DNA of 64,000 nucleotides from an uncultured Bacteroidales bacterium (GTDB lineage Bacteria; Bacteroidota; Bacteroidia; Bacteroidales; JAAYJT01): assembly GCA_964349765.1 (NCBI GenBank), contig CAYGGZ010000002.1:99151-163150 (forward strand), given 5' to 3'. The notes under the pieces are model-generated. The model ran no database searches. It was not told where the DNA came from and worked only from the letters and a program-made list of their open reading frames with translations. Below, in pieces: positions 1,350-57,687 of the stretch. The number at the start of each line of letters is the position of its first letter. Position 1 is the first letter of the stretch. The position numbers and the translations under genes are program-made.

Positions 1350-3824
1350 ATGCAACCCCAATACGCACAGATTTTGTTGCCTCTGCAACTGCCCACAATG
1401 TATACCTACAGTGTGCCGGAAAGTTTATTTAGTGAGATTCGGGCCGGGCAGCGTGCTGTAGTACAATTTGGTTCTAAAAGGCTTTATGCCGGATTGGTGA
1501 TGCAACTAACAAGCACAGCACCTCCAGGCAACATAAAACAAATCCTCTATCTACTTGATAAAGAATCCGTTGTTAACGATTTCCAGATGCAATTCTGGCA
1601 ATGGATGGCCTCCTACTATCTTTGTACGCCCGGCGAAGTGATGGGTGCCGCCCTTCCTTCAGGCTTAAGGCTTTCGAGCGAAAGCATGGTATCGGTTAAT
1701 CCCGGCTATGATATTTCCGGTGCTATCCTTACCGAACCAGAGCTGAGATTACTGCAATACATTAAAGATAAAGGATCAATCACCATAGCCGAAACTTCAC
1801 GAATACCCGGTATTGAGCGTGCAATCGCCATGGTGCAGTCGTTGTTTACAAGAGGCGCAGTGGAGCTTTCAGAAGAGTTGGCAGAGCGATACAGGCCTAA
1901 AACCTCAAAAATGATCACACTTTCCCAAACCTACCATCAAAACGAACCTGCCCTGAACGCAATTATGGACTACTTAGATAAAAGAGCGCCAAAACAATCT
2001 GAATTATTACAGGTTTTGTTGAATCAATCAATCAGCAACAATCCGCCTGCCATGTCGCGTTCATCCCTCCTAAAAACCACACCCGGAACTGAGGGTGCGT
2101 TGCGTTCGCTAATAAGCAAAGGAATTGTTGATGAGATTGAGGTTATTGTTTCGCGCATTCCTGAAGCAACAGAAAAGTCGCACCCAGATGCTATTGTGCT
2201 AACCCAGGCGCAAGATCAGGCTTACAGTCAGATATTGCAGTGCATGGCAGAACTGAAACCGGTTTTGTTGTTCGGTATCACTTCGAGCGGAAAAACAGAA
2301 ATCTACATCAAACTCATTGCCGAAACCATCCGGCAGGGCAAACAGGTACTCTACCTATTGCCGGAGATTGCCCTTACAAGTCAGATCATCCGCAGGCTTC
2401 AGAATTTTTTCGGCAATCGTGTAGGAGTGTATCATTCCCGTTATGGCGAACCCGAAAGGGTAGAAGTTTGGCAAAAGGTTCTGAATCAGACTTTGGCATC
2501 AGAAACATGCAGCATCATTTTAGGAGCACGTAGCGCTGTTTTTCTTCCTTTTTCCAGTCTTGGGCTCGTCATCGTTGACGAAGAGCACGATAGTAGTTTC
2601 AAACAGCATGACCCCCAACCCCGCTACAATGCCCGTGATGCAGCCGTTTATCTGGCCGCCCAGCACAAAGCTGCTGTTGTGCTTGGATCGGCAACTCCAG
2701 CGCTTGAAAGCTACTTCAATACAGCAACGGGTAAATACAGGCTTGTGGAATTAAAGGAGCGTTACGGCAATGTTCTGCTGCCTGTAGTTGAAACCGCAGA
2801 TTTGAAAGAGGCAACACGTCGAAAAACCATGAAAAGTCACTTCACTCCTGAGCTGATTGCCGCGCTTGAAGAGGCTATTCAAAACAATGAGCAGGCTATA
2901 CTTTTTCAAAACCGGCGTGGATTTTCTCTCCGCATCGAATGCTCCGGCTGTCAATGGATTCCCCATTGTCGTCATTGCGATGTAACCCTAATTTATCACA
3001 AAAGTTCGAACCAATTACGCTGCCATTACTGTGGATATCACGAACCGACTCCTGAAGCCTGTCCTGAGTGCGGAAACACAGCTTTAATTATGATAGGTTT
3101 TGGAACCGAAAGAGTTGAAGAAGATTTGGCGTTACTTTATCCTGATCTTCGGATCGAAAGGTTGGATCTTGACTCCACACGCAGCAAACACTCCTATCAA
3201 CGTATTATCGGCGGTTTTGAGGAACATTCGATTGATGTTCTTACAGGCACCCAAATGGTTACTAAAGGTTTGAACTTTGAACATGTGAGTCTGGTGGGTA
3301 TTTTGAATGCTGATAACATGATTCATTTCCCTGATTTTCGTGCGTTTGAGCGTAGTTTTCAGTTGATGGCCCAGGTAAGTGGCCGCGCTGGGCGCAAGCA
3401 TCGCCGGGGTAAGGTTATTCTGCAGACCCGTAATCCTGAAAATAAGGTGATAAAATGGGTTATAAACACCGACTACGAAGCAATGTATAATTCGCAGATG
3501 GAAGAGCGGCGTCAGTTTGGATATCCTCCTTTCACAAGGCTTGTTCGTATCTCGCTACGCCATAAAGAACAACAACCGCTCGAAGCGGCTTCGGTTGTGC
3601 TTGCCCGTGAATTACGCAGGCTTTTTCCCGGAAAAATCCTTGGCCCCGAATACCCTCTCATCTCACGCATTAAGAACTTGTATATCAAGGACATTTTGAT
3701 AAAGCTTCCCAGGACTGCAGAGTTAATGGAATCGAAACACAAAATCAAAGATATGCTTGATAGATTTGCGGCAAGTCCGGTTTCGAACCGTGTAAAAATT
3801 GCCGTTGATGTTGACCCTGTTTAG
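1350..3824 (+). CDS. priA: Primosomal protein N' (replication restart helicase PriA)
   Basis: The 824-aa product has Walker A GITSSGKTEIY, DEEH, a Cys-rich Zn-finger region (CSGCQWIPHCRHCDVTLIYHKSSNQLRCHYCGYHEPTPEACPECG), and helicase C motifs (TQMVTKGLNF...QVSGRAGR). Confidence 0.95.
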   Translation: MQPQYAQILLPLQLPTMYTYSVPESLFSEIRAGQRAVVQFGSKRLYAGLVMQLTSTAPPGNIKQILYLLDKESVVNDFQMQFWQWMASYYLCTPGEVMGAALPSGLRLSSESMVSVNPGYDISGAILTEPELRLLQYIKDKGSITIAETSRIPGIERAIAMVQSLFTRGAVELSEELAERYRPKTSKMITLSQTYHQNEPALNAIMDYLDKRAPKQSELLQVLLNQSISNNPPAMSRSSLLKTTPGTEGALRSLISKGIVDEIEVIVSRIPEATEKSHPDAIVLTQAQDQAYSQILQCMAELKPVLLFGITSSGKTEIYIKLIAETIRQGKQVLYLLPEIALTSQIIRRLQNFFGNRVGVYHSRYGEPERVEVWQKVLNQTLASETCSIILGARSAVFLPFSSLGLVIVDEEHDSSFKQHDPQPRYNARDAAVYLAAQHKAAVVLGSATPALESYFNTATGKYRLVELKERYGNVLLPVVETADLKEATRRKTMKSHFTPELIAALEEAIQNNEQAILFQNRRGFSLRIECSGCQWIPHCRHCDVTLIYHKSSNQLRCHYCGYHEPTPEACPECGNTALIMIGFGTERVEEDLALLYPDLRIERLDLDSTRSKHSYQRIIGGFEEHSIDVLTGTQMVTKGLNFEHVSLVGILNADNMIHFPDFRAFERSFQLMAQVSGRAGRKHRRGKVILQTRNPENKVIKWVINTDYEAMYNSQMEERRQFGYPPFTRLVRISLRHKEQQPLEAASVVLARELRRLFPGKILGPEYPLISRIKNLYIKDILIKLPRTAELMESKHKIKDMLDRFAASPVSNRVKIAVDVDPV

Positions 3825-3845: not shown

Positions 3846-5048
3846 TTATACTTTTTCCAATGCAACAGCAATACCTTGACCAACACCGATGCACATTGTA
3901 CACAAGGCTTTGCTAAGGCCTAATTGTTGAAGCTGGTTGATTGCAGTGGTAACGAGCCGTGCTCCGCTCATCCCGAGTGGATGCCCAAGGGCAATAGCAC
4001 CACCCCAACGGTTTACTCTCGGATCGTTGTCGGCAAGGCCAAACTCACGGATACAGGCCAGCGCCTGAGCAGAGAATGCTTCGTTGATCTCTATGACATC
4101 CAGATTATCCAGTGTAAGCTTCAGGCGGTCCAGCAGCTTGTATGTTGCAGGAACCGGCCCCATACCCATGATGCGGGGTTGAACACCTGCAACCGCCATC
4201 CCAAGAAAGCGGGCGGAAGGTGTTAGGTTGTATTTTTTTAGAGCAGCTTCTGAGGCAAGTATCATCGCCGAAGCGCCGTCGTTAACTCCAGAGGCATTGC
4301 CTGCTGTAACTGTGCCATTGTTTCCAACAATCGGTTTCAGTGCGGCGAGCTGCGGAAGCGAGGTGCGGCGAGGGTGTTCATCGGTGTTCACAAATAATGG
4401 TTCGCCCTTTCGTTGTGGAATCTCAACCGAAACAATCTCATTATTAAAATAATTTAACTGTTGCGCTGCAAAGGCTTTTTCCTGACTATGAAACGCAAAG
4501 CTGTCCTGATCCTCACGGTTGATGCCGAAATCGGCTGCAATGTTTTCGGCGGTTTCAATCATTGACTCAGCTCCATATTGCCGTTCGAGGAGCTTATTCA
4601 CAAACCTCCAGCCCATCGTGGTGTCGTACATTTTAATGTTGCGAGAGAATGCTTGTTCGCTTTTATCCAGAACAAACGGAGCCCTCGACATACTTTCTAT
4701 TCCCCCGGCGATAATCAGACCGGCTTCCGCCGATCGAATCGCACGCGCGGCAGTTCCAACGGCATCCATGCCCGAACCACATAGCCTGTTTATTGTAGAG
4801 CCAGGGACAGTTTCAGGTAAACCCGCAAGGAGCAAAGCCATCCGGGCAACATTGCGATTGTCTTCTCCCGCCTGATTAGCGCAGCCCATCAATACATCAT
4901 CTACCATCGTCCAATCAATGCCGGGATTACGTTCTACGAGCGCCCGAAGAACGATTGCAGCTAAATCATCGGTTCGCACCGAAGAAAGCGAGCCTCCATA
5001 CTTTCCAATTGGAGTTCGTACAGCATCGCAGATAAACACTTCATTCAT
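3846..5048 (-). CDS. Acetyl-CoA C-acyltransferase (3-ketoacyl-CoA thiolase)
   Basis: The 400-aa product has the thiolase motifs [11 protein letters not shown] (active-site Cys), [21 protein letters not shown] and CIGVGQGIA. It is the last gene of the minus-strand cluster. Confidence 0.92.
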
Positions 5049-5060
5049 TGCACGAAAATA

Positions 5061-6407
5061 TTAGTTGAACTTATCGAGCATTGGTTTTACATGACGAAAT
5101 CCGCTGAGCATAGCATCGGACAGCATGTCTACCTCTTTTTGTGTTACCATTGTTGAAAACACGCAGGAGCACGAATTTACGATCATCACTCCATTTTCGT
5201 AAAGGTGGTCGATAAAGGCATTAACGATTTTTTTTGTCTGCTCATCTTCATATCCATCGCGATACGACAGCGGAGGCGTTTGGCGGAAATGCACCTTAAA
5301 CAATGACCCCCCTCCGGTGAGGCAAACCGGAACATCGGCTGTTTTAACTGCTTCTTCAATCTGTTTACGAGCCTTTGCAGTTGTTTCGTTGATCTTCAGC
5401 ACTGCCTTGCGATCGAAAAGTTCGAGGGCAACCTTTCCTGCAGCCATTGAAACGGGATTTGCGGAGAAGGTTCCTGAAAGAGGAAACCGGAATTTGGAGC
5501 TTCTCGGATCAAGAACTTCCATCACATCGTTTCGTCCGGCAAAAGCCCCGATAGGAAACCCGCCACCAATTAATTTGCCCATGGAGGTAAGATCAGGTTT
5601 TTGAGGGTAATCCTGCTGTGCGCCTTCGTAGTTTACCCGAAAGCAAATAACCTCGTCGAAGCACAGTAGAACATTGTTTTGGCGGGTCCAATCGAAAACT
5701 GCACTTATAAATTCCTGTGAAGCAGGAATCAAACCAATTCTGTGAGGAACCGGATCGATTAATACACATGCCAGTTCAGATGCATGCCTGTTGAGAATAT
5801 TAATGGTTCGTTCAACATCGTTGAAAGGGAAAATCACTACATCGTTTAAAACGCCCTGCGGTGTGCCATGAACAAGTGGAACGCTTTGGGGCTGGTTTAG
5901 ATCGCCCCAGTTTACGGGAGTAGAAGATTGGCTCACCTCCGCAACATCATAGCTGCCGTGGTATGCTCCTTCGGCCTTAGCTATCTTGGGTTTGCCTGTA
6001 AAAGCACGGGCAGTCTTGATCATAGCCATTACGGCTTCGGTACCGGAATTCACAAAACGTATTTTATCGAATCCTGGAACGCGGTTGCAAAGCAATTTGG
6101 CAAGGTCAATTTCTATTTCCGATGCAAGAGTAAATGCAGTGCCTCTGGAAATTTGTTCGCATGCGGCCGAAACAATTGCCGGGTGAGCGTGTCCGTGAAT
6201 GAGCGATGCGATATTGTTTGCAAAGTCAACACGCTTTACTCCATGAATGTCAGTAACATAACAGCCTTCAGCATGAGAAACGTAATGCGGATGCGGCTTC
6301 CGGAAATGAACGTTGCGGCTGATTCCGCCAGAGAGCACTTTGCATGCTTCGCTGTAAATACTCTCGTCGGTTTTTAGATCGGTTTGTGTTTTATAGTTTG
6401 TTTGCAT
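5061..6407 (-). CDS. Class III (GSAM-like) PLP aminotransferase; candidate beta-amino-acid aminotransferase
   Basis: The 448-aa product has GTEAVMAMIKTAR, AYHGS, FDEVICFRV and the PLP-lysine context MGKLIGGGFPIGAF, as in the glutamate-1-semialdehyde aminomutase-like branch. Only the gene context suggests a beta-amino-acid role. Confidence 0.8.
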   Translation of the reverse strand: MQTNYKTQTDLKTDESIYSEACKVLSGGISRNVHFRKPHPHYVSHAEGCYVTDIHGVKRVDFANNIASLIHGHAHPAIVSAACEQISRGTAFTLASEIEIDLAKLLCNRVPGFDKIRFVNSGTEAVMAMIKTARAFTGKPKIAKAEGAYHGSYDVAEVSQSSTPVNWGDLNQPQSVPLVHGTPQGVLNDVVIFPFNDVERTINILNRHASELACVLIDPVPHRIGLIPASQEFISAVFDWTRQNNVLLCFDEVICFRVNYEGAQQDYPQKPDLTSMGKLIGGGFPIGAFAGRNDVMEVLDPRSSKFRFPLSGTFSANPVSMAAGKVALELFDRKAVLKINETTAKARKQIEEAVKTADVPVCLTGGGSLFKVHFRQTPPLSYRDGYEDEQTKKIVNAFIDHLYENGVMIVNSCSCVFSTMVTQKEVDMLSDAMLSGFRHVKPMLDKFN

Positions 6408-6432
6408 GCTTTTCAGAATTTCATTGAACTAA

Positions 6433-7083
6433 CTAATACTGATTTAGTTTCACGGCAGTGCGTTGTTGCAGGAGTTCAAAATTAACACCCGGGGCCAGTT
6501 CACGAACGAAAAGTCCTTTTGATGTAACATCTATTATGGCGTAGTCGGTGTAGATGCGGTCAACTACTTGTTTGCCTGTGAGCGGATAAGTGCATTGCTC
6601 CACTATTTTTGAGTCGCCATTTTTTGTTGTGTGTTGTGTGATCACAAAAATAGTTTTTACTCCTTCAACCAGGTCCATTGCACCTCCCACAGCAGGGATA
6701 GCGCCTGGTTCTCCGGTACTCCAGTTTGCGAGGTCGCCTTTTCCGGAAACCTGAAACGCCCCCAAAACACAAATGTCGATATGTCCGCCGCGAACCATTG
6801 CAAAACTGTCGGCATGATGAAAGAAGCAAGCTCCCTCAATTGCGGTTACGGGTTTTTTACCGGCATTTATCAGTTCGTCGTCTTCCATTCCTGGTTGGGG
6901 CGAAGGACCAACCCCAAGGAGTCCGTTTTCGGTGTGAAAAATTACTTCCCTTCCTTGAGGAATATAATTTGCTACGAGCTCAGGCATTCCAATACCGAGG
7001 TTCACATAGGCGCCGTTGGGAATATCTTCGGCTATTTTCTGAGCCATTTGTTCGCGGGTCCATCCAATATCTTCGGCTTTCAT
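6433..7083 (-). CDS. 3-oxoacid CoA-transferase subunit B
   Basis: The 216-aa product has the ...VIFHTENGLLGVGP... ((S)ENG catalytic Glu motif). It overlaps subunit A by 4 nt. Confidence 0.9.
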   Translation of the reverse strand: MKAEDIGWTREQMAQKIAEDIPNGAYVNLGIGMPELVANYIPQGREVIFHTENGLLGVGPSPQPGMEDDELINAGKKPVTAIEGACFFHHADSFAMVRGGHIDICVLGAFQVSGKGDLANWSTGEPGAIPAVGGAMDLVEGVKTIFVITQHTTKNGDSKIVEQCTYPLTGKQVVDRIYTDYAIIDVTSKGLFVRELAPGVNFELLQQRTAVKLNQY

Positions 7084-7790
7084 GGATACCTCCTCTGCTC
7101 TTTGATTAAAACGTTTTCACTCACCGGATTAGGTACGTGAATAACTTTCTTCACAAAAATTCCCGGAGTAACTACAATCTCAGGATCAATCGTACCGATT
7201 TCAACGATTTCGGAGGCCTGCACAATAGCATTTCTGGCAGCCATGCACATTACAGGGCCAAAGTTTCGGGCAGTTTTGTTGTACAAAAGATTGCCATAGC
7301 GGTCGGCCGTCCTGCATTTTACCAGAGCAAAATCGGAGCGGATTCCATATTCCATTACATTAATCCGGCCGTTAAATTCCCGTGTTTCTTTTCCTTCTGC
7401 AATAGGAGTATTTACCGAGGTAGGAGTGTAAAACGCTGGTATTCCGGCTCCACCCGCACGGATTCTTTCTGCGAGTGTTCCCTGCGGAACTAATTCCAAC
7501 TCAATTTCGCCACGCTTGTAGAGCTCAGGAAACACCACCGAATGTGCAGTGCGTGGAAAAGAACAGATCATCTTCTTAACCTGACGGTTTTCGATCAGCG
7601 CTGCAAGCCCAATATGGCCGTTGCCTGTGTTGTTGCTTACAACTGTCAGATTTTTTGCACCGTGGTCAATCAAGGCATGAATGAGTTCAATCGGGCTGCC
7701 TGCTTCCCCAAACCCGCTGATCATCACTGTAGCGCCGTCGAAAATACCCGCTACGGCTTCAGAAAGGGATGTAACAATTTTATTGATCAT
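7080..7790 (-). CDS. 3-oxoacid CoA-transferase subunit A
   Basis: The 236-aa product has ...ISGFGEAGSPIELIHALIDHGAKNLTVVSNN...VPQGTLAERIRAGGAGIPAFYTPT..., typical of ScoA/AtoD-type subunit A. Confidence 0.9.
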   Translation of the reverse strand: MINKIVTSLSEAVAGIFDGATVMISGFGEAGSPIELIHALIDHGAKNLTVVSNNTGNGHIGLAALIENRQVKKMICSFPRTAHSVVFPELYKRGEIELELVPQGTLAERIRAGGAGIPAFYTPTSVNTPIAEGKETREFNGRINVMEYGIRSDFALVKCRTADRYGNLLYNKTARNFGPVMCMAARNAIVQASEIVEIGTIDPEIVVTPGIFVKKVIHVPNPVSENVLIKEQRRYP

Positions 7791-7809
7791 TTCAGGGCTG
7801 ATTAACCAT

Positions 7810-9387
7810 TTACTTCCTGCGTCCGGTTTCTATTGATTGATGCAGATTGTGTTCTATTTCAGCGAGTTCATCTTCGAAGAAATGTTTATCTGCGCCATAA
7901 GGTTTCAGATTGGTGATAGTATTTTCGTACTCATCATATTTGGCAAGATATACTTTATCCATCCATTCGATATTTCTGCCCTGATTGAATTTGAGCGCAA
8001 AGAGCTTCTCCCCGTTTAGCTCAACCTCGCCAAGCAATGAAATTTTTCCGGCTGAGGAGGTTTGTGTAATATATCTCGATGGACGGTTGATACTCGGGAG
8101 CGAACGGTATATCTTCGAGAAAATCTTGTTGATTGCTGTTACCGGTTGGTTAAAGTAGTGGAACTCTCCGGTAGGCCGAGCCAGATACATTGAATGAAAA
8201 CCAACTCCCAGCATTGCAAAAACATTGGCAAGATCGATCCAGTTCTGTGCTGAGCGGTCAATGTCCACCTCGCCATTTTCCTTCTGGAAAAGACTGATAT
8301 GGTTCATTATGGGGCTTTGACTCTTTATTGTTGCGCCGTGAGCTCTCAGCCGTCTGATGGCAGCAATGGTACTAATGTTCAGCACCTCTCTTGGGGTCGA
8401 AAAATGCGACATGAATACAAGCTGAATCCCGTTGTCGTAAAGTCTCTGAAAATGGCCAAGCATCTCGTTATACTCGGGTGTGATGATCATTTCCGGATTG
8501 TATGTAAGAATCCTTGTTCCAAGGCGGATGGTTTTGATGTGATTAAGCTCAGGGTCTTCGATGATTGGTGTGATATATTCATTAAAGCGCCCTGCACTCA
8601 GATAGCCTGCATCGCCTCCTGTGATAAGCACATCGGTAACCTCCTTATGCTGTTTAAGATACACATGTATCTGGTGAACATCTTTTTGGATAAACATATC
8701 ATCGTCGCCACGAACCTGTGCGTGACGGAAACAGTAGTTGCAAAAGGCAAAACAATTCTGCGTTTCAAAATCAAAAATCAGTTTGCATTGCGGATATTTA
8801 TGCTGGCTGCCTTCAATAACCTCAATTGCACCGTCTTCATTAACAAAGGTAGGCTTGTTTAATTGCTGTTTGCCATCATGTGGATTGGTTTCGCGGATAT
8901 AATCTTTCACAATTTTTTCACGTTCATGATCGCTGCCAGCAAGCAGATAGGCTTTTTCCACATCGGCTCTTATCATGCCGGGCTGTGGAAAAACGAGTTG
9001 AAACACAGAGTCCTTCTCAAAGTTAGCCCAGTTTATAGTATCTAACACATGCTTTGTAGCCATAAAGCGATACACCTTGATAAAAAGCTCCCGCTCTTCG
9101 ATATGTCCGATGTTTATTCCATGATCGGCCAATACCTTAACAATCTCTCTAAAGCCTTTCATTCCGGAATAGTGTTTCTTGTCGACAAACAGAAATTCGG
9201 CATCCTCCCTGATTCCTGAATGCTGCGGATAAGCTGCATCAAGCCGGCTTAAAACTCCTTCAGGAAGCAGATTTTCGCTGCGGATGATAGCTTTTGTGCC
9301 TTCAGAATAGTGAAACCGGTGCATCATTTCATCTACAGCAACTTTGTTAATAAGCACATTGCTTCCGGTAGTCAATTTGTGGTTCAT
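7810..9387 (-). CDS. KamA-family radical SAM protein (amino acid 2,3-aminomutase-like), atypically long
   Basis: The 525-aa product has SQHKYPQCKLIFDFETQNCFAFCNYCFRHAQ (CxxxCxxC at 8731-8754), DVLITGGDAG, and a C-terminal ...TSSAGKISL Lys where KamA has its PLP-lysine (GGGGK). Extensions of about 190 aa (N-terminal) and 60 aa (C-terminal) have no family I can assign. Confidence 0.8.
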   Translation of the reverse strand: MNHKLTTGSNVLINKVAVDEMMHRFHYSEGTKAIIRSENLLPEGVLSRLDAAYPQHSGIREDAEFLFVDKKHYSGMKGFREIVKVLADHGINIGHIEERELFIKVYRFMATKHVLDTINWANFEKDSVFQLVFPQPGMIRADVEKAYLLAGSDHEREKIVKDYIRETNPHDGKQQLNKPTFVNEDGAIEVIEGSQHKYPQCKLIFDFETQNCFAFCNYCFRHAQVRGDDDMFIQKDVHQIHVYLKQHKEVTDVLITGGDAGYLSAGRFNEYITPIIEDPELNHIKTIRLGTRILTYNPEMIITPEYNEMLGHFQRLYDNGIQLVFMSHFSTPREVLNISTIAAIRRLRAHGATIKSQSPIMNHISLFQKENGEVDIDRSAQNWIDLANVFAMLGVGFHSMYLARPTGEFHYFNQPVTAINKIFSKIYRSLPSINRPSRYITQTSSAGKISLLGEVELNGEKLFALKFNQGRNIEWMDKVYLAKYDEYENTITNLKPYGADKHFFEDELAEIEHNLHQSIETGRRK

Positions 9388-9478
9388 TGAAATTTATTTT
9401 TGTTTTTTGATTATTATTTGTAGCGTTAAGCGCCTGTTATTCATCCGTTTACCAGCATTAAACCCACTGCTATTCCTG

Positions 9479-9486
9479 CAAAGTTA
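9479..9486 (-). promoter_or_regulatory. Candidate internal -7 motif (TAacTTTG on the minus strand) upstream of the KamA-like gene
   Basis: The plus strand reads CAAAgtTA inside the 177-nt gap between the hydrolase and the KamA-like gene. A second match (CAAAatTA) lies at 9535-9542. Confidence 0.3.
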
Positions 9487-9564
9487 GCAATAGTGTGGAG
9501 TGCGATTTAAATAATCCGGCTCTAAATAATATTGCAAAATTATGTATAAAAGTCCGTACTATTG

Positions 9565-10344
9565 TCAGAATTTTATCTCAAAATCATCGGCATCCCTCCA
9601 AACCGGGAATTTTTCGCGGAAGGCAAAAAGTGCATCTGTATCCAGTTCGGCAGTGATTATTTCCTCGTTTTCATTTTCTGCGGCACGCATTATTTCGCCT
9701 TTCATATCGCAAACCATAGTATCGCCGGTGTATGTTATACCATTTTCGTCCGACCCGATTCGGTTCACGGCACAAACATAACACTGATTCTCAATGGCTC
9801 GGGCCATGAGAAGTTTAATCCAAACCTGTCTTCGTGCCGACGGCCAATTGGCAACAATGAAAATTGCATCATAATCGTTGCGGTTGCGCAGCCACACAGG
9901 AAATCGAAGGTCGTAGCAGATTGCAAGCAAAATGCGCAACCCTTTGTATTCCACCACAACACGTCGCTTTCCAGAAGCATAAGCTCCGCTGTCGCGTTCA
10001 AGAAAAAAAAGGTGACGTTTGTCGTAGTACGACAACTTGCCTTCGGGTGTAGCCCAGACAAAACGATTAAAGGTTCCAGCCAGATCCTTGATTATCAAAC
10101 TCCCCCCTAATGCCATTCCTGTTTCGGCAGAAATGCGTTTCATCCAATCCACCGAAGTCCCATCCATAGTTTGAGCCCATTGAGATGAGTTCATAGTGAA
10201 ACCCGTAGAGAACATCTCAGGCAGAAGAACAGCATCGCTCCGACCGTTAAGGCCTTTGATCTTTTTTTCAATGTAATCAAGGTTGGCAACAGGGTTTTCC
10301 CACACCAGGCCTACCTGTAGAAGTGATATCCTAAAAACACTCAT
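9565..10344 (-). CDS. Carbon-nitrogen hydrolase family amidohydrolase (YafV/omega-amidase-like)
   Basis: The 259-aa product has ...AVLLPEMFSTGF... (catalytic Glu), ...YDKRHLF... (Lys) and ...ILLAICYDLRFP... (Cys), the nitrilase-superfamily E-K-C triad contexts. Confidence 0.85.
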   Translation of the reverse strand: MSVFRISLLQVGLVWENPVANLDYIEKKIKGLNGRSDAVLLPEMFSTGFTMNSSQWAQTMDGTSVDWMKRISAETGMALGGSLIIKDLAGTFNRFVWATPEGKLSYYDKRHLFFLERDSGAYASGKRRVVVEYKGLRILLAICYDLRFPVWLRNRNDYDAIFIVANWPSARRQVWIKLLMARAIENQCYVCAVNRIGSDENGITYTGDTMVCDMKGEIMRAAENENEEIITAELDTDALFAFREKFPVWRDADDFEIKF

Positions 10345-11774
10345 GATTTTTGATTTACTGATTTAAATTTACTCCAGTAGTTTCCAACTATTATTGAAAT
10401 AATAGCCACGATAACACCTGCAAAGGTTTTGTCAATATCGTACCAGCCCTTCTCTGCGGCCAGAATGCTCAACCCAATTGCCACGGTACCAGCAGTGAAC
10501 GACAGTGAAACAGCCTCTTTTGAAATCCAATTACGATAGTATAACCCCATCAAAATCACTATTGCACCAATCGCCCTGATCGAATAGGAAACGTAGGCGG
10601 CATCGAGTATTGCGCCGTGTAAAAACACTGCAAGCGGCACAGTGATCAAGTTAACGATAACAACGAATCTGCGTGCAGTGATAACCAATTCCTTATCAGT
10701 CGCCCCTTTTCGCAACACTCCATTATAAATATCTTTTGTAATGATTGTAACAACAGCAAAGTTTACCGGCCCTACGGTTGATAGAATGGCAGCAAGGATG
10801 CCAGCCAGCGCAATGCCCCCAAGTATTGGATGGATAAACAATGGCTCTGTCATCAACGTAGGTAACACCATCTTAGGGTTTACGGTAATCGGATCAATAA
10901 ATAATCCCGTTTTAGCGATCAGCCCCAGGAGGGCAACCATCACACCGAATGGAGCGATTATAAAAGCCGACAATATTGCTGCTTTACGAGCCGTGGCGGC
11001 GTTGCGTGCAGCAAATATCGGTTGGATACTTGCTTGTCCAGCCATTCCACCAAGAACTCCCCCTAATATCAAGCTTGCAGCGTTGCTAATTCCTGCGCTA
11101 AACGGATTATACAGATTCTCCGGCGAACCATTTGCAATAAGAATAGCTGCAAGATTTCCAAATCCATTAACTTTTTCGATCCCCACAAATAGTGCTGTTC
11201 CCAATCCCAAAAACATAACAGCCAGATGAATAATTCCTGTAATAGCAAGAGCATGCATCCCACCTATGTAAGTGTAAGCCGTAATAATCAGTGAAGCCAG
11301 AATGACCGCGGTGATCCAGTCAACACCAAAGAGCGGAACCATAACAGCAGCAAAGGTTTGTAATTGCACATAACCAAGTGTGATATAGGCAATTGTAAAG
11401 GCAACTGCCGACCAGAACTTTGCTTTACTACCAAACATAGAATCAAGCATCTCACTTACGGTGTAAACGTTCCGTTCGCGGTATTGTCGGGCAACAGTAA
11501 AGCCAATGATTACCATACCGATTGCAGTTGAAATATTGTAGAGAACAGGTTGCAAGGTGCCTGTGGTAAAAGCAGTTTCACTCACACCAATTGTGCTCAG
11601 CCCTCCTAACCATTCGGCTGCCACTACTATTGCACATACAACAAGACCAAGATTTCTTCCAGCAACCAGATAATCGGCTGCAGAGCGTGTGGCCAGCCTG
11701 CGGATTAGAAATGACACTGCAGCCACAAGAATGAAATAGGCAATAACAACAATCAGGTAAATACTCATAATCAA
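10341..11774 (-). CDS. Sodium:solute symporter (SSS) family transporter
   Basis: The 477-aa polytopic membrane protein starts ...YLVAGRNLGLVVCAIVVAAEWLGG..., typical of SSS N-termini. Its stop overlaps the hydrolase start by 4 nt. Confidence 0.85.
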   Translation of the reverse strand: MIMSIYLIVVIAYFILVAAVSFLIRRLATRSAADYLVAGRNLGLVVCAIVVAAEWLGGLSTIGVSETAFTTGTLQPVLYNISTAIGMVIIGFTVARQYRERNVYTVSEMLDSMFGSKAKFWSAVAFTIAYITLGYVQLQTFAAVMVPLFGVDWITAVILASLIITAYTYIGGMHALAITGIIHLAVMFLGLGTALFVGIEKVNGFGNLAAILIANGSPENLYNPFSAGISNAASLILGGVLGGMAGQASIQPIFAARNAATARKAAILSAFIIAPFGVMVALLGLIAKTGLFIDPITVNPKMVLPTLMTEPLFIHPILGGIALAGILAAILSTVGPVNFAVVTIITKDIYNGVLRKGATDKELVITARRFVVIVNLITVPLAVFLHGAILDAAYVSYSIRAIGAIVILMGLYYRNWISKEAVSLSFTAGTVAIGLSILAAEKGWYDIDKTFAGVIVAIISIIVGNYWSKFKSVNQKS

Positions 11775-11869
11775 GTCATCAGTGTCACTTCACACTAAAT
11801 TTCATAAATCGTGTCCCATTGCCAGGAAATTAGAACGGTAAAGACCACGTTTCATCGCCTACCAGCCTG

Positions 11870-11877
11870 CAAAGATA
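11870..11877 (-). promoter_or_regulatory. Candidate Bacteroidota -7 promoter motif (TAtcTTTG on the minus strand) for the SSS-led operon
   Basis: The plus strand reads CAAAgaTA, about 96 nt upstream of the ATG at 11774. Confidence 0.35.
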
Positions 11878-14884: not shown

Positions 14885-16344
14885 GAGTGCATTCTGTGAT
14901 CAATTACCAGATCGTCCTGAAAGTAACAAGCTTACTTATCGTTATTATTGCATTGTTTATTTTCGCATGCCTGCCAGTATCATTACTCACAGGCGGTGAC
15001 GATTTTATTTCCCTTGCCATCTCAGCATTCATAACAGCAGCCATCGGAGGAACAATATGGATGCTAACCGGCAAATTCAATTCCAATGCTATTGGCAAAA
15101 AAGAGGCGTATCTGATTGTGGTCGTTACCTGGCTGAGCATGGTTTTTTTTGGCAGTTTACCATACTTAATCAGCGGTACGATACCAAATCTTACCGACGC
15201 ATTCTTTGAATCCATGTCGGGATTTACTACAACCGGCGCCTCAATATTAACCGACATCGAAGCCGTGTCTGAGGGAATTTTATTCTGGAGAAGCCTCACT
15301 CACTGGATCGGAGGAATGGGAATCATTGTTTTTTCAGTGGCCATATTGTCGCTTTTCGGCATCGGAGGAATACAGCTTTTTCTGGCCGAAGTGCCCGGTC
15401 CGTCAAAAGAAAAGCTTCACCCTCGAATCAAACAAACAGCCCTTCGACTATGGGGCATATATGTACTTTTAACCCTGATGCAAACACTACTGCTTGTTGC
15501 GGGCAATATGACACTCTACGATGCTGTTACTCATTCATTTTCTACAATTTCTACAGGAGGGTTCTCAACCCGCAACGCAAGTATGGGGGCGTTTTCTGCC
15601 TATGCCCAATATGTTACAATCGTTTTCATGATTTTATCAGGCACAAACTTTACTCTTCATTACTTGCTGTTGAACCGGCGTTGGAAGCAGGTAATCGCCG
15701 ACGAGGAGCTAAGGATGTACCTTGGAATAATCATAATCTCTACATTGGTAATCGCTCTCTTTCTCGTTCATAATGGATATGGAACAACCGAAAAATCATT
15801 CCGTGATGCACTGTTCCAGGTAACTACAATCATGACATGTACCGGATTCGCAACCGCCGATTTCATGCAATGGCCAGTATTCTGCTGGTTTTTACTTTTT
15901 TTGTTAATGCTGGTTGGAGGTTGTGCCGGAAGCACCGCTGGAGGAATTAAGGTGATACGGCATCTGTTGCTTCTGAAAGGCCTCAGGAACGAATTCAGGG
16001 GGCTGATGCACCCTTCCGCATACCTGCCGCTACAGTACAATGGTCATACGGTTGGAGAAAACATACACAGAAACATTCTGGCAATTTTCATACTTTATTT
16101 GCTCACTTTTACCATCGGTTCATTTCTTTTGACACTCAGCGGCCTCGACCATATTACAGCCATGGGTTCAGTGGCTCAGGCAATGGGAAATATCGGGGTT
16201 GGGCTGGCAGCAACAGGCCCTGCTTCTAACTTTGCGGAGATAAGTGTGGCAGCGAAATGGACCCTGTCATGTCTGATGTTGATCGGAAGATTAGAAATAT
16301 TAACCGTTTTTGTGCTCTTTAGTAAAGCCTTTTATAAAAAATAA
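14872..16344 (+). CDS. trkH: TrkH-family potassium transporter (copy 2, tandem paralog)
   Basis: The 490-aa product carries the same motif set (FFESMSGFTTTGASIL, WIGGMGIIV, STGGFST, GGCAGSTAGGIK). The start is uncertain: TTG 14872 overlaps the copy-1 stop, and GTG 14887 is an alternative. Confidence 0.88.
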   Translation: MEKVRVHSVINYQIVLKVTSLLIVIIALFIFACLPVSLLTGGDDFISLAISAFITAAIGGTIWMLTGKFNSNAIGKKEAYLIVVVTWLSMVFFGSLPYLISGTIPNLTDAFFESMSGFTTTGASILTDIEAVSEGILFWRSLTHWIGGMGIIVFSVAILSLFGIGGIQLFLAEVPGPSKEKLHPRIKQTALRLWGIYVLLTLMQTLLLVAGNMTLYDAVTHSFSTISTGGFSTRNASMGAFSAYAQYVTIVFMILSGTNFTLHYLLLNRRWKQVIADEELRMYLGIIIISTLVIALFLVHNGYGTTEKSFRDALFQVTTIMTCTGFATADFMQWPVFCWFLLFLLMLVGGCAGSTAGGIKVIRHLLLLKGLRNEFRGLMHPSAYLPLQYNGHTVGENIHRNILAIFILYLLTFTIGSFLLTLSGLDHITAMGSVAQAMGNIGVGLAATGPASNFAEISVAAKWTLSCLMLIGRLEILTVFVLFSKAFYKK

Positions 16345-23489: not shown

Positions 23490-23542
23490 AGCGTTGTATT
23501 ATCTCAATCCTGCAAAAATAATGATCTTTGAGATCATAAAAT

Positions 23543-25940: not shown

Positions 25941-27008
25941 ATGGTCATGAAAAACAAAATCATTTATTTGGTAATCACAATAATAGCAGTTTCTATGCTA
26001 GTGATTGCCTGCAAGAAGGATGAAATTCAGGAATTCACTGCTGAGGAGGCAAAAGTTGAGATTCGCTCAGCGAATCAACAAATCCAGAATGACATGGATG
26101 AAATGATGGCCACCGAAGCAGCCACATCCTTAAATTCTCTGATGAACCTGCTAAACGCCCCCGATGACTGGAAGTCTTCGCTGAAATCTCCTCAATCACC
26201 GCTAAAACAGTTGAATGTTGCTGGAATCAGCAGGTTCCTGCGAAACAACTTCCCGGCGGACTTAACAACCAAAAACTCACAGGAAGGCGGCTTGCTTGTG
26301 TATGATTTTGATTCTGCGTATTTTATTCTTGTTGAACCCAGGGAGGATTTGGTATTCCTTTATCCTGCCGACGATAATGCATACGCCAACAGACAAAACA
26401 ACGCAGAATTGACTATAGCTGATCTTCAAATTATTGAAATCGAATATACTGATGAATATGGCACCTATTATGAGCCGGTTCCTGTAAACGCTGTGGTAAC
26501 GCTAAAGGTTGACAATCAAACAGTAATGACTTTAAATTACACTGCAACATTCAACAACGAAGGTCTGCCACTTACAATGACCATTGACATGAATATGGCT
26601 CCATACCGGTTTACACTTAACTTTTCAGGCAGCGGAGCAACGTACACCTCAGTAATGAGCTTCACCAAAGGAAATGAGAAACTGATGGGCTATGACCTCA
26701 CCATCACATACAGTGCAAATATGGAGCTTATCAATAAAGCAACTGGAACAATTGACTTAGTTCCATTGCGGCTAAAGGGCGATGTTAAACCTGAATTACT
26801 GGAAAACTGCCCCGAAAACGATATAATTTGCATGAATAACAACATTAATCTTCAGCTTATTCACACAGGCGAAAATAAAATTATCGGCGATATTGAGTTC
26901 AGAATCTATTATGATGATGAATGGGACGAAGAATATCCTGAACCAGTAATCGTGTATTCCGACGGAACATGGGAATATTTCTTCAATATTTTCGATGCGC
27001 CAGTGTAA
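25941..27008 (+). CDS. Hypothetical lipoprotein (paralog 1)
   Basis: It has a signal peptide with a lipobox (...VSMLVIAC KKDE). I recognise no family, and it shows weak colinear similarity to the product of 28024-29016. Confidence 0.6.
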   Translation: MVMKNKIIYLVITIIAVSMLVIACKKDEIQEFTAEEAKVEIRSANQQIQNDMDEMMATEAATSLNSLMNLLNAPDDWKSSLKSPQSPLKQLNVAGISRFLRNNFPADLTTKNSQEGGLLVYDFDSAYFILVEPREDLVFLYPADDNAYANRQNNAELTIADLQIIEIEYTDEYGTYYEPVPVNAVVTLKVDNQTVMTLNYTATFNNEGLPLTMTIDMNMAPYRFTLNFSGSGATYTSVMSFTKGNEKLMGYDLTITYSANMELINKATGTIDLVPLRLKGDVKPELLENCPENDIICMNNNINLQLIHTGENKIIGDIEFRIYYDDEWDEEYPEPVIVYSDGTWEYFFNIFDAPV

Positions 27009-27230: not shown

Positions 27231-28019
27231 ATGATGCATAAACATGGAAGTGGTTTTTTAGATTTTCCTAAATATCCTCTAACAACTGCTGCATTTTTTC
27301 TGCTGCTGGTTTGCATATCCTGTGTGGATCAAACTGCCACTTTGCCTGAAACAGGTTCGCGCGAGAAAACGCTGCATAACAAAGACGCTACATGGGTATA
27401 TGAAGGAATAAACGAGTTGAGAAAGGGCGACATCATCGTAAAACCCAACTTAAATTTATTACCCGGAAGCGCTCCACTTCCAGACGGTTGGTTTTTTGGC
27501 CATGCCGCAATTGTTACAACCGGAGCTATTCATCATAATCCCGATAGCCTGTTAGCCACAGTAATGATATTTGAATCCCATGCTTTGGATATTCCTGTAT
27601 CCTATCAACTCAGGGAAGTTCCCGGATTTATCATCAGCGAGAATAGGTCTCGTAATAATATTGGTTTTTCATCGGAATATAAAGGGAACCGCTATAGACT
27701 CCGACTTAATATTCCTGAATATCAGATTGATTCGATAATTGCTTTTGTCCGGTCTCAAAAAGGCGATTCCTCTAATTGGAATGCGATGAAGCAATTTCCC
27801 GACACGCCAAACATCAAACAAAGAGTTGCCGACGGAGAAAGAGAGAATTGGGCTGACAACACACACTGGTACTGTTCGTTGCTGGTGTGGCAGGCTGTTT
27901 TGTACGTTACTGGACTGGATTTGGACCCAAACGGCGGATTTTATGTTTACCCAAACGATCTTATTGTTAGCCCACACTTTGACAACAGTAGAGATTTTAG
28001 AGCCCGTGCCCGATTCTGA
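27231..28019 (+). CDS. YiiX/DUF830-like permuted papain-fold (NlpC/P60 superfamily) lipoprotein
   Basis: It has a lipobox (...LLLVCISC VDQ). The motif order is GDIIVK...FGHAAIV...IFESH...THWYCSLLVWQAV...VYPNDLIVSPHF (His before the YCS Cys), as in permuted YiiX-type enzymes. Confidence 0.55.
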   Translation: MMHKHGSGFLDFPKYPLTTAAFFLLLVCISCVDQTATLPETGSREKTLHNKDATWVYEGINELRKGDIIVKPNLNLLPGSAPLPDGWFFGHAAIVTTGAIHHNPDSLLATVMIFESHALDIPVSYQLREVPGFIISENRSRNNIGFSSEYKGNRYRLRLNIPEYQIDSIIAFVRSQKGDSSNWNAMKQFPDTPNIKQRVADGERENWADNTHWYCSLLVWQAVLYVTGLDLDPNGGFYVYPNDLIVSPHFDNSRDFRARARF

Positions 28020-28023
28020 ACCG

Positions 28024-29016
28024 TTATTTCTTTATATTCATAATTTCCCTGACCGTTAAAAGCTCATCTTCAAGAAACACATAACTTCCGTCTGCACTAT
28101 AAAATGCATAATCTAGCTTATCGCTCCGGGTTCTTTGCTTAAGTCTTATCTCGCCAAGTTTTCTATTATCATTTAACCGGAATGCTTCTATTCGGCTATG
28201 ATTGTTGAACTCACTCACAAAATCGGCAGTATGTGCATCAACAGCATCGTTATTCACTTTGGCTAAGAGAAGAGCCGGAAATGCCGACAGGCTTGCACGC
28301 AACGTGTGAAAGCGCATAGCGCCGTTGCCGTTAAAGCCAAGTTTTGATTGTATTCTCCCGTTTATTTTATTCTCCCCCTCTCTGTCGACCCGAAATTTCA
28401 ATAGGGCATTCGAAAGTTTTCGTCTTAGGCGGCTGGTAAGTACAATTCTTAACTCAAAACTTTCCACTCTTGCGTAAAGGTCCACTGCAACAGGCAATTG
28501 ATGTTCTACGGTTGCGCTATGCACAATTTCTACCACCTTTCTGCCATCAACAGAAAGAAATCCCTTAAAAATAGTTGGTATCATCATATTACCGCTGCTT
28601 TTCTCCTCCCCGAAATCGCTGATCACCAGCTTAGCAAGTTTTGAATTGCTCAGCCGGATCGGATAATGCAAGATGATGGAATCACTTTGATGAGTTAAAA
28701 CAAACCTGTTTATCAGAGTGTCGTAGAAATAGGAGCCACGATAGCGTGCAAAATTGAAGGTTTTAACTTCACCGGGATTTTCTGAGGCGTGAGCATAAAA
28801 CGGTAATGGAATGTTTTTAACTTGTTGAATCTCATGAAATATCTCAAAAGACTTTGTTTGGCGAATAGCGTTGAGCAATACAATTAGCTCATTATCCATC
28901 GCCCTGATATGATCAAAAGCATCTGTAGCAGGAAGTGGCCGCCGGCAGGAGTAAGAGAGCAGAACTATTGCTACGATAGTGAGCGCTGCTAAATAAAATC
29001 GCTTTAATTTTTGCAT
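28024..29016 (-). CDS. Hypothetical lipoprotein (paralog 2)
   Basis: It has a signal peptide with a lipobox (...IVLLSYSC RRP). It is weakly colinear with the 25941-27008 product (for example G.y.YD....F.L......l.YP....A.L.I.D, and C-terminal ..YS.DG...F). Confidence 0.6.
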   Translation of the reverse strand: MQKLKRFYLAALTIVAIVLLSYSCRRPLPATDAFDHIRAMDNELIVLLNAIRQTKSFEIFHEIQQVKNIPLPFYAHASENPGEVKTFNFARYRGSYFYDTLINRFVLTHQSDSIILHYPIRLSNSKLAKLVISDFGEEKSSGNMMIPTIFKGFLSVDGRKVVEIVHSATVEHQLPVAVDLYARVESFELRIVLTSRLRRKLSNALLKFRVDREGENKINGRIQSKLGFNGNGAMRFHTLRASLSAFPALLLAKVNNDAVDAHTADFVSEFNNHSRIEAFRLNDNRKLGEIRLKQRTRSDKLDYAFYSADGSYVFLEDELLTVREIMNIKK

Positions 29017-30640: not shown

Positions 30641-30649
30641 ATAAACCGT

Positions 30650-44895: not shown

Positions 44896-44903
44896 TATGT
44901 TTG
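44896..44903 (+). promoter_or_regulatory. Candidate -7 promoter motif TAtgTTTG
   Basis: TAnnTTTG match 35 nt upstream of ATG 44938. It supports the shorter start for the GT4 gene. Confidence 0.4.
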
Positions 44904-44937
44904 CAGGCTACAATCTCTGTTACTTATTATCTGTTTC

Positions 44938-57666: not shown

Positions 57667-57687
57667 GCTAAACGGAATTGTGGTTAA

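Follow-up and report, generated by a model that had tools for sequence, protein, structure and literature searches.

Organization of the locus

A 64,000-nucleotide stretch of DNA from an uncultured Bacteroidales bacterium (contig CAYGGZ010000002.1; this whole stretch is referred to here as the window) carries a block of seven minus-strand open reading frames (ORFs). The last five encode a KamA-like radical-SAM protein, the two subunits of a CoA-transferase, an aminotransferase, and a thiolase. These five genes form a conserved core, which we read, with a probability of roughly 0.6, as a catabolic route predicted to take L-2-aminoadipate, a C6 dicarboxylic amino acid derived from lysine, to acetyl-CoA and succinyl-CoA. 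An earlier note on this DNA had described the block as seven co-directional, tightly packed genes. An ORF check of the window finds every gene where it had been placed and every spacing exact. In the order of transcription, the transporter gene overlaps that of the C-N hydrolase by 4 nucleotides, a gap of 177 nucleotides leads to the KamA-like gene, and 19 more lead to CoA-transferase A, which overlaps subunit B by 4. Gaps of 25 and 12 nucleotides then precede the aminotransferase and the thiolase, respectively. The strand switches at both ends of the block, with PriA convergent 21 nucleotides downstream of the thiolase gene and TrkA divergent 239 nucleotides upstream of the transporter gene. 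The features of the block are the following:

11866-11877, minus strand: promoter-like element TATCTTTGCAGG upstream of the SSS gene (12-mer pattern; extended TAnnTTTG match)
10341-11774, minus strand: sodium:solute symporter (SSS) family transporter (PF00474, 128.7 bits); accessory
9565-10344, minus strand: C-N hydrolase of the YafV or omega-amidase type (PF00795, 115 bits; NF007757, 284.2 bits); accessory
9475-9486, minus strand: promoter-like element TAACTTTGCAGG in the 177-nucleotide gap before the mutase gene (12-mer pattern)
7810-9387, minus strand: KamA-like radical-SAM/PLP protein of 525 residues (C212-x3-C216-x2-C219); proposed 2-aminoadipate 2,3-aminomutase
7080-7790, minus strand: 3-oxoacid CoA-transferase subunit A, PcaI/ScoA family (TIGR02429, 346.7 bits)
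6433-7083, minus strand: 3-oxoacid CoA-transferase subunit B, PcaJ/ScoB family (TIGR02428, 302.2 bits)
5061-6407, minus strand: class III aminotransferase of the GSAM-like branch (PF00202, 192 bits); proposed 3-aminoadipate (beta-amino acid) transaminase
3846-5048, minus strand: 3-oxoadipyl-CoA thiolase, PcaF/PaaJ type (TIGR02430, 656.8 bits; NF006551, 680.4 bits)

Searches of Pfam and NCBIfam bear out the families that had been proposed for all seven products. The ORF of the SSS transporter begins at a TTG; other gene calls take the ATG at 11768, giving a protein of 475 residues. An identical copy of the locus is present on metagenomic contigs.

Conservation of the five-gene core

A species-level scan, using one genome per species, returned 480 matching stretches. 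The counts of gene order refer to the 80 best loci, whose gene content was scored by tblastn with the seven window proteins; individual loci are cited by L number. Genes for the mutase, CoA-transferase A, CoA-transferase B, the aminotransferase, and the thiolase lie in that order and on one strand in 64 of the 80. Another 14 are truncated by a contig end and conform in the part that remains, and two (L030 and L087) lack an adjacent thiolase. The order is kept, that is, in 64 of the 66 loci untouched by contig ends, an arrangement far beyond chance. Median identities to the window proteins are 67% for the mutase, 78% and 74% for CoA-transferase subunits A and B, 61% for the aminotransferase, and 68% for the thiolase.

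All carriers among these 80 loci are metagenome-assembled genomes, and they span at least seven phylum-level groups. Over the matching stretches as a whole, the hosts are for the most part uncultured members of Bacteroidales, Ignavibacteriota, and Cloacimonadota that come from sediments and digesters. Among the 80, the Bacteroidales include Lentimicrobiaceae, Rikenellaceae, and Salinivirgaceae; outside this order, carriers belong to Ignavibacteriota, Balneolales, Saprospirales, Ca. Edwardsbacteria, Cloacimonadota, Elusimicrobia, and one bin labelled 'Deltaproteobacteria'. The neighbourhood, whose conservation in relatives had been raised as a question, thus keeps its core order across phyla. 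Of the seven-gene operon as first proposed, however, only these five genes are conserved, and the SSS and C-N hydrolase genes are accessory. The latter accompany the core independently or together, in some Bacteroidales only. About 9 of all the loci examined contain SSS, which immediately precedes the core in L010, L014-L017, L019, and L022 (58-69% identity); about 7 contain the C-N hydrolase, which adjoins the core in L017, L019, L026, L034, and L072.

Four copies of a 12-mer, TAnnTTTGCAGG, are present in the window, where 0.18 would be expected. They are at 9475-9486, 11866-11877, and 23509-23520 (all minus strand) and at 44896-44907 (plus strand). Three of the four lie just upstream of gene starts, namely those of the mutase, SSS, and GcpE, and two fall in the two intergenic gaps of the block. 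The 12-mer resembles an extended Bacteroidota -7 element, TAnnTTTG being the Bacteroides -7 consensus, and it is probably the extended promoter -7 element of the source organism. This type of motif was used because a sigma-70 promoter scan (21 found, 13.8 expected) and one for terminators (7 found, 8.7 expected) are of no help in a Bacteroidota genome. No riboswitch was found between positions 3500 and 12500 of the window (Rfam, E<=1). Because the motif sits both before SSS and inside the 177-nucleotide gap, the block may be transcribed as two units, or as a single one that has a further promoter within it. An element in the gap is consistent with a core that stands alone in most genomes. Since the motif precedes each part and the core stands elsewhere without SSS and the C-N hydrolase, the block is best described, as far as its sequence goes, as a core of five genes that has a promoter-like site to itself, joined by an accessory module of two.

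Some loci carry additional genes of related families at the borders of the core. The Elusimicrobia locus L071 has a second, divergent CoA-transferase A/B pair (5060-6372; 43-48% identity) immediately upstream of the mutase gene, additional to the conserved downstream pair. B12-binding radical-SAM proteins with 31% mutual identity are encoded just downstream of the core in two unrelated lineages (L097, 13913-15268; L087, 14735-16303), and in L087 this gene takes the place of the missing thiolase.

The KamA-like protein

The first product of the core is a radical S-adenosylmethionine (SAM) protein. Its cluster motif, C212-F-A-F-C216-N-Y-C219, is invariant in the family and aligns with C125/C129/C132 of lysine 2,3-aminomutase (LAM). 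The protein scores 75.1 bits with the KamA family model TIGR00238 (cut-off 199.2), 67.6 with that of LAM (TIGR03820; 525.4), 67.1 with that of glutamate 2,3-aminomutase (TIGR04368; 650), and 64 with an arginine 2,3-aminomutase model (600). The EpmB model gives 48.5 bits (369.3), the weakest of six KamA-type matches; the gene context is metabolic, and epmA and efp are absent from it. Thus, the possibility that this protein clusters with EpmB-type enzymes, which the earlier note had left open, is not realized. No Pfam match was obtained for the protein at 1e-5. Intermediates from a wider superfamily, scoring 110-146 bits, bridge it to the KamA models over nearly the full model length, and its sole sequence relative in the PDB is LAM (2a5h). 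By these comparisons its family is a distant sister family of KamA.

Members of this family are numerous. More than 1,300 homologues were found, with identities of up to 82%, and the 120 best are 65-82% identical to the window protein. At 50% clustering the family forms essentially two clusters, with the wider superfamily behind them at 25-40% identity. The copy at NCBI is annotated 'hypothetical protein [Bacteroidales bacterium]', and the JGI family label is 'lysine 2,3-aminomutase'.

LAM of Clostridium subterminale (KamA, 2A5H) is the best match in both sequence and fold. An AlphaFold (AF2) model of the mutase, built with 24 homologues (mean pLDDT 80.8), returns 2a5h as the best Foldseek match (E 1.4e-11, target-normalised TM 0.62), followed by matches of E 2e-4 or worse, and the modelled protein has the overall LAM fold. 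The two proteins share the CxxxCxxC motif, a GGD segment, and the residue pairs K337/K448 and R134/R221 (LAM/window). They are only 17-18% identical over the structural alignment, however, and the window protein is 109 residues longer, with an N-terminal extension of about 100 residues that is absent from wider KamA-like relatives. The C-terminal cysteine stretch of LAM, which forms its zinc site, has no counterpart in the window mutase and aligns to a gap in the bridging alignment described below.

The active site was mapped with a bridging alignment of 19 sequences including LAM (A2) and with a 42-sequence profile aligned to LAM by hhalign (probability 99.8%, E 6e-29, LAM residues 30-325). 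A narrow-family profile alignment ended at LAM residue 263, so that the broader profile was required for the region around D293. In both alignments the offset between the two proteins stays at 111 residues all along the C-terminal half. They equate R221 with LAM R134, the alpha-carboxylate binder, and K448, invariant in 19/19 sequences of A2, with LAM K337, the lysine that holds pyridoxal 5'-phosphate (PLP). R404, which is invariant in the family, stands at the position of LAM D293, and T441, a position that is Thr or Ser across the family, at that of D330. In the 2A5H structure these two aspartates bind the epsilon-ammonium group of lysine; where LAM has D293, the glutamate 2,3-aminomutase carries a lysine, a long and basic residue. 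Because both aspartates are replaced, by an invariant Arg and by Thr/Ser, the substrate would appear to be other than lysine and to carry an anionic distal group; the pair Arg404 and Thr441 argues for a distal carboxylate and against lysine.

The wider KamA-like superfamily comprises 1,441 representatives (clusters at 50% identity, E<=1e-3) of about 400-470 residues. At the position of LAM D293 its members often show 'RDTG'. They have no N-terminal extension, score below every KamA equivalog cut-off, and are mostly encoded by stand-alone genes. Three distant relatives, P0124, P0129, and P0132, gave no functional hint, each being a stand-alone gene.

The partner enzymes

The thiolase passes the cut-offs of two models, the PcaF equivalog TIGR02430 (656.8 bits against 597) and NF006551 (680.4 against 605). 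Its best PDB match is the beta-ketoadipyl-CoA thiolase 6pca at 569 bits, and named acetoacetyl-CoA thiolases score about 330 bits or less. At the equivalog level, then, it classifies as a 3-oxoadipyl-CoA thiolase of the PcaF/PaaJ type.

The CoA-transferase subunits likewise exceed their cut-offs (A, 346.7 bits against 128.5 for TIGR02429; B, 302.2 bits against 243.55 for TIGR02428), and their best PDB matches are succinyl-CoA:3-ketoacid CoA-transferases, for subunit A 3cdk and 3rrl. The enzyme is classed by these models in the PcaIJ/ScoAB family, a level at which TIGR02429 and TIGR02428 do not split 3-oxoadipate from acetoacetate specificity.

The aminotransferase falls short of both HemL models, with 337.4 bits against 527.3 for TIGR00713 and 332.6 against 398 for NF000818, and it always travels with the operon. 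The worry that it might simply be the hemL of this genome is thereby dispelled, and by its model scores the protein is not HemL. Its PDB matches are headed by 6k8h (354 bits) and ForI (6ssd, 315 bits), followed by GSAMs at about 220 bits and by the Mesorhizobium and Variovorax beta-transaminases 2yku (190) and 4ao9 (180). The earlier note had placed the last two in the GSAM-like branch, with which these scores are consistent.

Of the two accessory proteins, the SSS transporter scores 139 bits with TIGR00813, below the cut-off, and has no equivalog match; it is presumed to take up the substrate or a precursor. The C-N hydrolase passes the equivalog of YafV-type omega-amidases (NF007757, 284.2 bits against 249).

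Genes adjoining the core in other lineages

Beyond the core, neighbouring genes are mostly lineage-specific housekeeping genes. Three independent neighbourhoods, however, hold genes of lysine or 2-aminoadipate metabolism. In Cloacimonadota (L086 and L070) the core is immediately preceded, on its own strand, by a gene like lysine-ketoglutarate reductase (LKR) and a Lys9-type saccharopine dehydrogenase (SDH) gene, at spacings of 76 and 17 nucleotides. The LKR-like product is a homologue of the lysine-ketoglutarate reductase domain of AASS (8dda, 275 bits), and the dehydrogenase matches 2axq at 317 bits and the SDH domain of human AASS at 260 bits; the two products are thus homologous to the two halves of aminoadipate-semialdehyde synthase. 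Downstream of the core come genes for an amino-acid permease and for a further member of the saccharopine-dehydrogenase family.

In the most divergent lineage (L097-L099), whose mutase is 59% identical to the window protein, a LysDH-like gene and an L-piperidine-6-carboxylate dehydrogenase (P6CDH) gene are followed by a divergent LysR regulator and then by the core. The LysDH-like product belongs to the saccharopine-dehydrogenase family, with 3abi as its best PDB match, and the P6CDH assignment is at the equivalog level (NF050084, 798 bits against 730). The thiolase of this lineage passes the PcaF cut-off too (690 bits against 597). Judged by their families, the neighbours in Cloacimonadota and in L097-L099 are enzyme sets that would make 2-aminoadipate or its semialdehyde from lysine. 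In a Bacteroidales clade (L051, L052, L056, L065, and L083), genes for a lipoate-protein ligase homologue, for HGLS (2-oxoadipate dioxygenase/decarboxylase; PF07063, 115 bits), and for a 970-residue FAD-linked oxidase with Fe-S domains lie downstream of the core on the same strand. This neighbourhood is one that, from its family content, handles the 2-oxo acid of 2-aminoadipate. A search of all fetched loci and of the window found LKR, SDH, LysDH, P6CDH, and HglS in these three lineages only, and none of them in the window.

Regulators also adjoin the core, and they differ among lineages. In 10 loci (among them L058, L060, L068, L072, L082, L087, and L069, where it occupies 3141-3692), a gene for a 183-residue protein with an XRE-type helix-turn-helix and a cupin domain precedes the core in the same orientation, 40-101 nucleotides away in six. 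The protein is likely a local ligand-sensing regulator. An HxlR/ArsR-like regulator is found in Edwardsbacteria. Together, the NAD-dependent aldehyde dehydrogenase, the transporters, and the varied regulators (LysR, XRE-cupin, and HxlR/ArsR-like) are in keeping with a catabolic operon that is induced by its substrate.

In 9 Bacteroidales loci, the core has beside it, in the same orientation, a gene for a beta-class carbonic anhydrase (Pro_CA, 172 bits). It follows the thiolase by 29-174 nucleotides in eight of them (L048, L057, where it lies at 15649-16308, L061, L064, L066, L074, L075, and L078); in L047 it lies at 2468-3157, about 1.1 kb upstream of the mutase gene. In Ca. Edwardsbacteria (L007-L009, 15748-21563), the region downstream of the core encodes Iso_dh, a fusion protein, and the large and small aconitase subunits. 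The fusion is an unusual one of 744 residues, joining an HMGL-like lyase domain to a family III CoA-transferase. These genes could constitute a homocitrate- or citramalate-type module.

A proposed route from 2-aminoadipate

The proposed route consists of four steps, whose substrates we infer; the enzymes themselves are placed in their families by the matches described above. The 525-residue radical-SAM/PLP protein would act as a 2,3-aminomutase, converting 2-aminoadipate to 3-aminoadipate by chemistry like that of LAM, with a 5'-deoxyadenosyl radical and a PLP aldimine. The GSAM-like class III aminotransferase would then pass the beta-amino group to a 2-oxo acid, leaving 3-oxoadipate. The PcaIJ/ScoAB-type CoA-transferase, with succinyl-CoA as the likely donor, would form 3-oxoadipyl-CoA, and the thiolase, for which the assignment is at equivalog level, would cleave this to acetyl-CoA and succinyl-CoA. 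The succinyl-CoA released by thiolysis would regenerate the CoA donor, so that the net reaction would turn 2-aminoadipate into succinate, acetyl-CoA, and one transferred amino group. Such a route would bypass 2-oxoadipate dehydrogenase and glutaryl-CoA dehydrogenase and would suit fermenting anaerobes. In the Bacteroidales genome of the window, the substrate or a precursor of it is probably provided by the SSS transporter and the YafV-type amidase, whose genes have a promoter-like element of their own; other lineages instead encode the predicted lysine-to-2-aminoadipate enzymes beside the core.

The route is favored because four lines converge on it: a thiolase of the PcaF type, a transferase of the PcaIJ type, a mutase pocket whose charge is reversed, and the three neighbourhoods. 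Its direction is probably catabolic, because the aldehyde dehydrogenase is oxidative, the transporters are for uptake, and the regulators vary by lineage. The general logic that the earlier note had put forward as undescribed, from an aminomutase through a beta-amino acid and a 3-oxoacid to a CoA ester and thiolysis, is supported by a gene set rigidly conserved across phyla, and we consider it quite probable, more so than the route in full. That note had also judged the substrate to be unreadable from the sequence. Together with its context, the sequence is partly readable after all, and it favors 2-aminoadipate, which was absent from the candidates then listed. Of the predicted products, acetyl-CoA stands, and the acyl-CoA two carbons shorter is refined to succinyl-CoA if the substrate is 2-aminoadipate.

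Several observations weigh against this assignment. The aminomutase activity of the mutase is itself deduced, for a protein that lies far below every curated KamA-family cut-off. An Arg at the D293 position is common in the wider uncharacterised KamA-like superfamily and may not determine specificity; moreover, C5 and C6 dicarboxylates cannot be told apart by the identity of this residue. No 2-aminoadipate-forming gene lies close by in most Bacteroidales loci, that of the window among them, and the Cloacimonadota operon is without an aminoadipate-semialdehyde dehydrogenase. HglS is O2-dependent and acts on 2-oxoadipate rather than 2-aminoadipate, making that link indirect. Two neighbours are unaccounted for by a 3-oxoadipate scheme, namely the YafV-type amidase and the beta-carbonic anhydrase, which could hint at a CO2-releasing step. 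Finally, in the literature that was searched, 3-aminoadipate does not figure as an established metabolite of bacteria.

Alternative readings

The anhydrase and the amidase might be easier to place if the mutase were a second, non-orthologous glutamate 2,3-aminomutase making beta-glutamate, which transamination would convert to 3-oxoglutarate. This product could decarboxylate to acetoacetate and yield two acetyl-CoA by way of acetoacetyl-CoA, or it could be activated and cleaved to acetyl-CoA and malonyl-CoA. Arg404 suits an acidic side chain of any kind, no amino acid is more abundant for protein fermenters than glutamate, YafV-type amidases act on glutaramate-type amides, and the carbonic anhydrase present beside the core in 9 loci could relate to a CO2-releasing step. 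The aminotransferase is also related to ForI (315 bits), whose substrate resembles the 3-oxoglutarate skeleton. We nevertheless consider a glutamate route unlikely: the thiolase is of the PcaF type at equivalog level and not an acetoacetyl-CoA thiolase, TIGR04368 gives only 67 bits against a cut-off of 650, the three informative neighbourhoods concern lysine, 2-aminoadipate, or 2-oxoadipate, and no operon contains a malonyl-CoA decarboxylase or an acetoacetate decarboxylase. Lysine itself seems a still poorer candidate. A divergent LAM would make beta-lysine, transamination at C3 would turn this into 6-amino-3-oxohexanoate, and that product would be activated and cleaved to acetyl-CoA and 4-aminobutyryl-CoA, a free-amine version of the acetyl-beta-lysine pathway of Pseudomonas B4. 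The JGI family label is in keeping with this, and the adjoining lysine-catabolic genes could mark a second, co-regulated lysine route. Yet both lysine-binding aspartates of LAM are replaced, one by a cationic arginine, TIGR03820 gives 67.6 bits against 525, the thiolase is PcaF-type, and no enzyme for 4-aminobutyryl-CoA is present, which together leave little room for it.

Two other readings retain the core chemistry in a different order or direction. If 3-aminoadipate, or another beta-amino acid, were activated before transamination, the aminotransferase would act on a beta-aminoacyl-CoA, as does Kat, and the thiolase would follow. The gene order (mutase, CoA-transferase, aminotransferase, thiolase) would then be the order of reactions, and a HemL-like acyl-CoA beta-transaminase is a proven precedent (PMC3149608). 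However, the window aminotransferase is only 27% identical to Kat and closer to the free-amino-acid transaminases 6k8h, 2yku, and 4ao9, and the CoA-transferase belongs to a 3-oxoacid family; activation before transamination is therefore improbable, somewhat more so than the use of glutamate. Least probable of all is a biosynthetic direction, in which acetyl-CoA and succinyl-CoA would be joined to 3-oxoadipyl-CoA and carried through 3-oxoadipate, 3-aminoadipate, and 2-aminoadipate to lysine via saccharopine, with the omega-amidase pulling a glutamine-dependent transamination. All four core reactions are reversible in principle, fungal LKR and saccharopine dehydrogenase also run biosynthetically, a YafV-type omega-amidase is indeed present in the window operon, and Iso_dh, HMGL-like, and aconitase genes lie downstream in Ca. 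Edwardsbacteria. Set against these are a neighbouring piperideine-6-carboxylate dehydrogenase that is oxidative only, the lack of any aminoadipate reductase, a degradative HglS, and uptake transporters and LysR/XRE-type local regulators that are typical of catabolism.

Three further candidates were rejected. The core is not an orthologue of the Kat system: over 444 columns, the aminotransferase is 27% identical to Kat of Cloacimonas (CLOAM0809), whose locus was recovered from metagenomes via a published primer sequence; the thiolase is 42% identical to the acetoacetyl-CoA thiolase encoded there, and the Kat locus lacks a mutase and a CoA-transferase. A 4,3-amino shift of GABA to 3-aminobutyrate, leading to acetoacetate, was dropped in view of the PcaF-type thiolase and of neighbourhoods that point to 2-aminoadipate. 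The resemblance seen earlier to the beta-leucine scheme finds no support, since the Arg at the distal-group (D293) position and the PcaF-type thiolase oppose a branched-chain substrate and nothing favors one.

Relation to known systems

Glutamate 2,3-aminomutase (Eam, TIGR04368) was reportedly described by Ruzicka and Frey in 2007 as a KamA-family enzyme that takes an acidic amino acid. Its LAM-type aspartates are replaced by a basic and a neutral residue, the same logic as that of Arg404/Thr441 in the window mutase. The two are not orthologous (67 bits against 650), however, and their genomic contexts differ. We know of no catabolic partner enzymes described for Eam.

The last two steps of the core are predicted to be identical to those of the lower beta-ketoadipate pathway (PcaIJ and PcaF). 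There, 3-oxoadipate arises when aromatic rings are cleaved aerobically, whereas here it would be formed, in anaerobes, from an amino acid via a beta-amino intermediate. The known fates of 2-aminoadipate, which would be the shared entry metabolite, lead through 2-oxoadipate either to glutaryl-CoA or, by HglS, to D-2-hydroxyglutarate. Both open with an alpha-transamination followed by a decarboxylation that is either oxidative or dependent on O2. The proposed route would instead keep all six carbons, need neither O2 nor a lipoamide complex, and give succinyl-CoA and acetyl-CoA.

Lysine fermentation likewise starts with a radical-SAM 2,3-aminomutase, passes through beta-amino and 3-oxo intermediates, and ends with a CoA-transferase and a thiolase; its Kat variant also uses a HemL-like beta-transaminase (PMC3149608). 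In Cloacimonas, this HemL-like 3-aminobutyryl-CoA transaminase (Kat) adjoins a thiolase (Perret et al., PMC3149608). As had been noted before, the block is not the known lysine fermentation cluster: kamDE, kdd, kce, and kal are absent from the operon and from the entire window. The aminotransferase shares the fold-type I class III branch with the beta-transaminases 2YKU (Mesorhizobium) and 4AO9 (Variovorax), with 6K8H, and with ForI (6SSD). Its closest solved relatives are non-HemL transaminases, although the relatedness is moderate (180-354 bits). Enzymes of the 2YKU/4AO9 type act mainly on aromatic or aliphatic beta-amino acids; for the window enzyme a dicarboxylic specificity is predicted.

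Novelty and significance

No description of such a pathway was found in the full-text literature searched, which comprised work open without subscription. The only matches there were two untargeted metabolomics annotations, one paper on meteorite amino acids, and one misprint in a title. The enzyme families are known; their combination, the proposed specificity of the aminomutase, and the intermediate are new.

With a slight lean in its favor, we suggest that the core represents an unrecognized, widespread branch of anaerobic lysine catabolism, opened by the first 2-aminoadipate 2,3-aminomutase and with it by a new radical-SAM/PLP subfamily. In that case 3-aminoadipate would be a genuine metabolite of bacteria, and the fermentation of amino acids would connect with the lower beta-ketoadipate pathway. 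Taken further, the idea would make the wider KamA-like superfamily that shares the Arg one of acidic-amino-acid aminomutases. To our knowledge, the described substrates of radical-SAM/PLP aminomutases are Lys, Glu, and Arg, apart from the EF-P-modifying EpmB. If the proposal is correct, this small set would gain a new substrate class, 3-aminoadipate would be a new natural beta-amino acid, and 2-aminoadipate would have a new oxygen-independent fate, one giving ATP-yielding acetyl-CoA together with succinate. Current annotation labels the key enzyme 'hypothetical' or 'lysine 2,3-aminomutase' and the transaminase 'HemL'; if the proposal holds, models of metabolism in these communities of protein fermenters would thus err on this point. 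The core enzymes would also be of interest to adipate and beta-amino-acid biocatalysis.

Other features of the window

Elsewhere in the window, a 389-residue protein (39646-40815, minus strand) contains two tandem adenylate-kinase domains (Pfam ADK twice), an unusual fused or duplicated Adk. Four ORFs have no Pfam match at 1e-5: 32233-35145 (plus strand, 970 residues), 25941-27008 (plus, 355), 27231-28019 (plus, 262), and 28024-29016 (minus, 330). A histidyl-tRNA synthetase gene is followed after 9 nucleotides by one for a histidine/aromatic ammonia-lyase (29279-32176, plus strand), and a two-gene 2-oxoacid:ferredoxin oxidoreductase of the IorAB-like type is encoded at 57079-59292 (minus strand). 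The ammonia-lyase and the IorAB-like genes fit an amino-acid-fermenting lifestyle.

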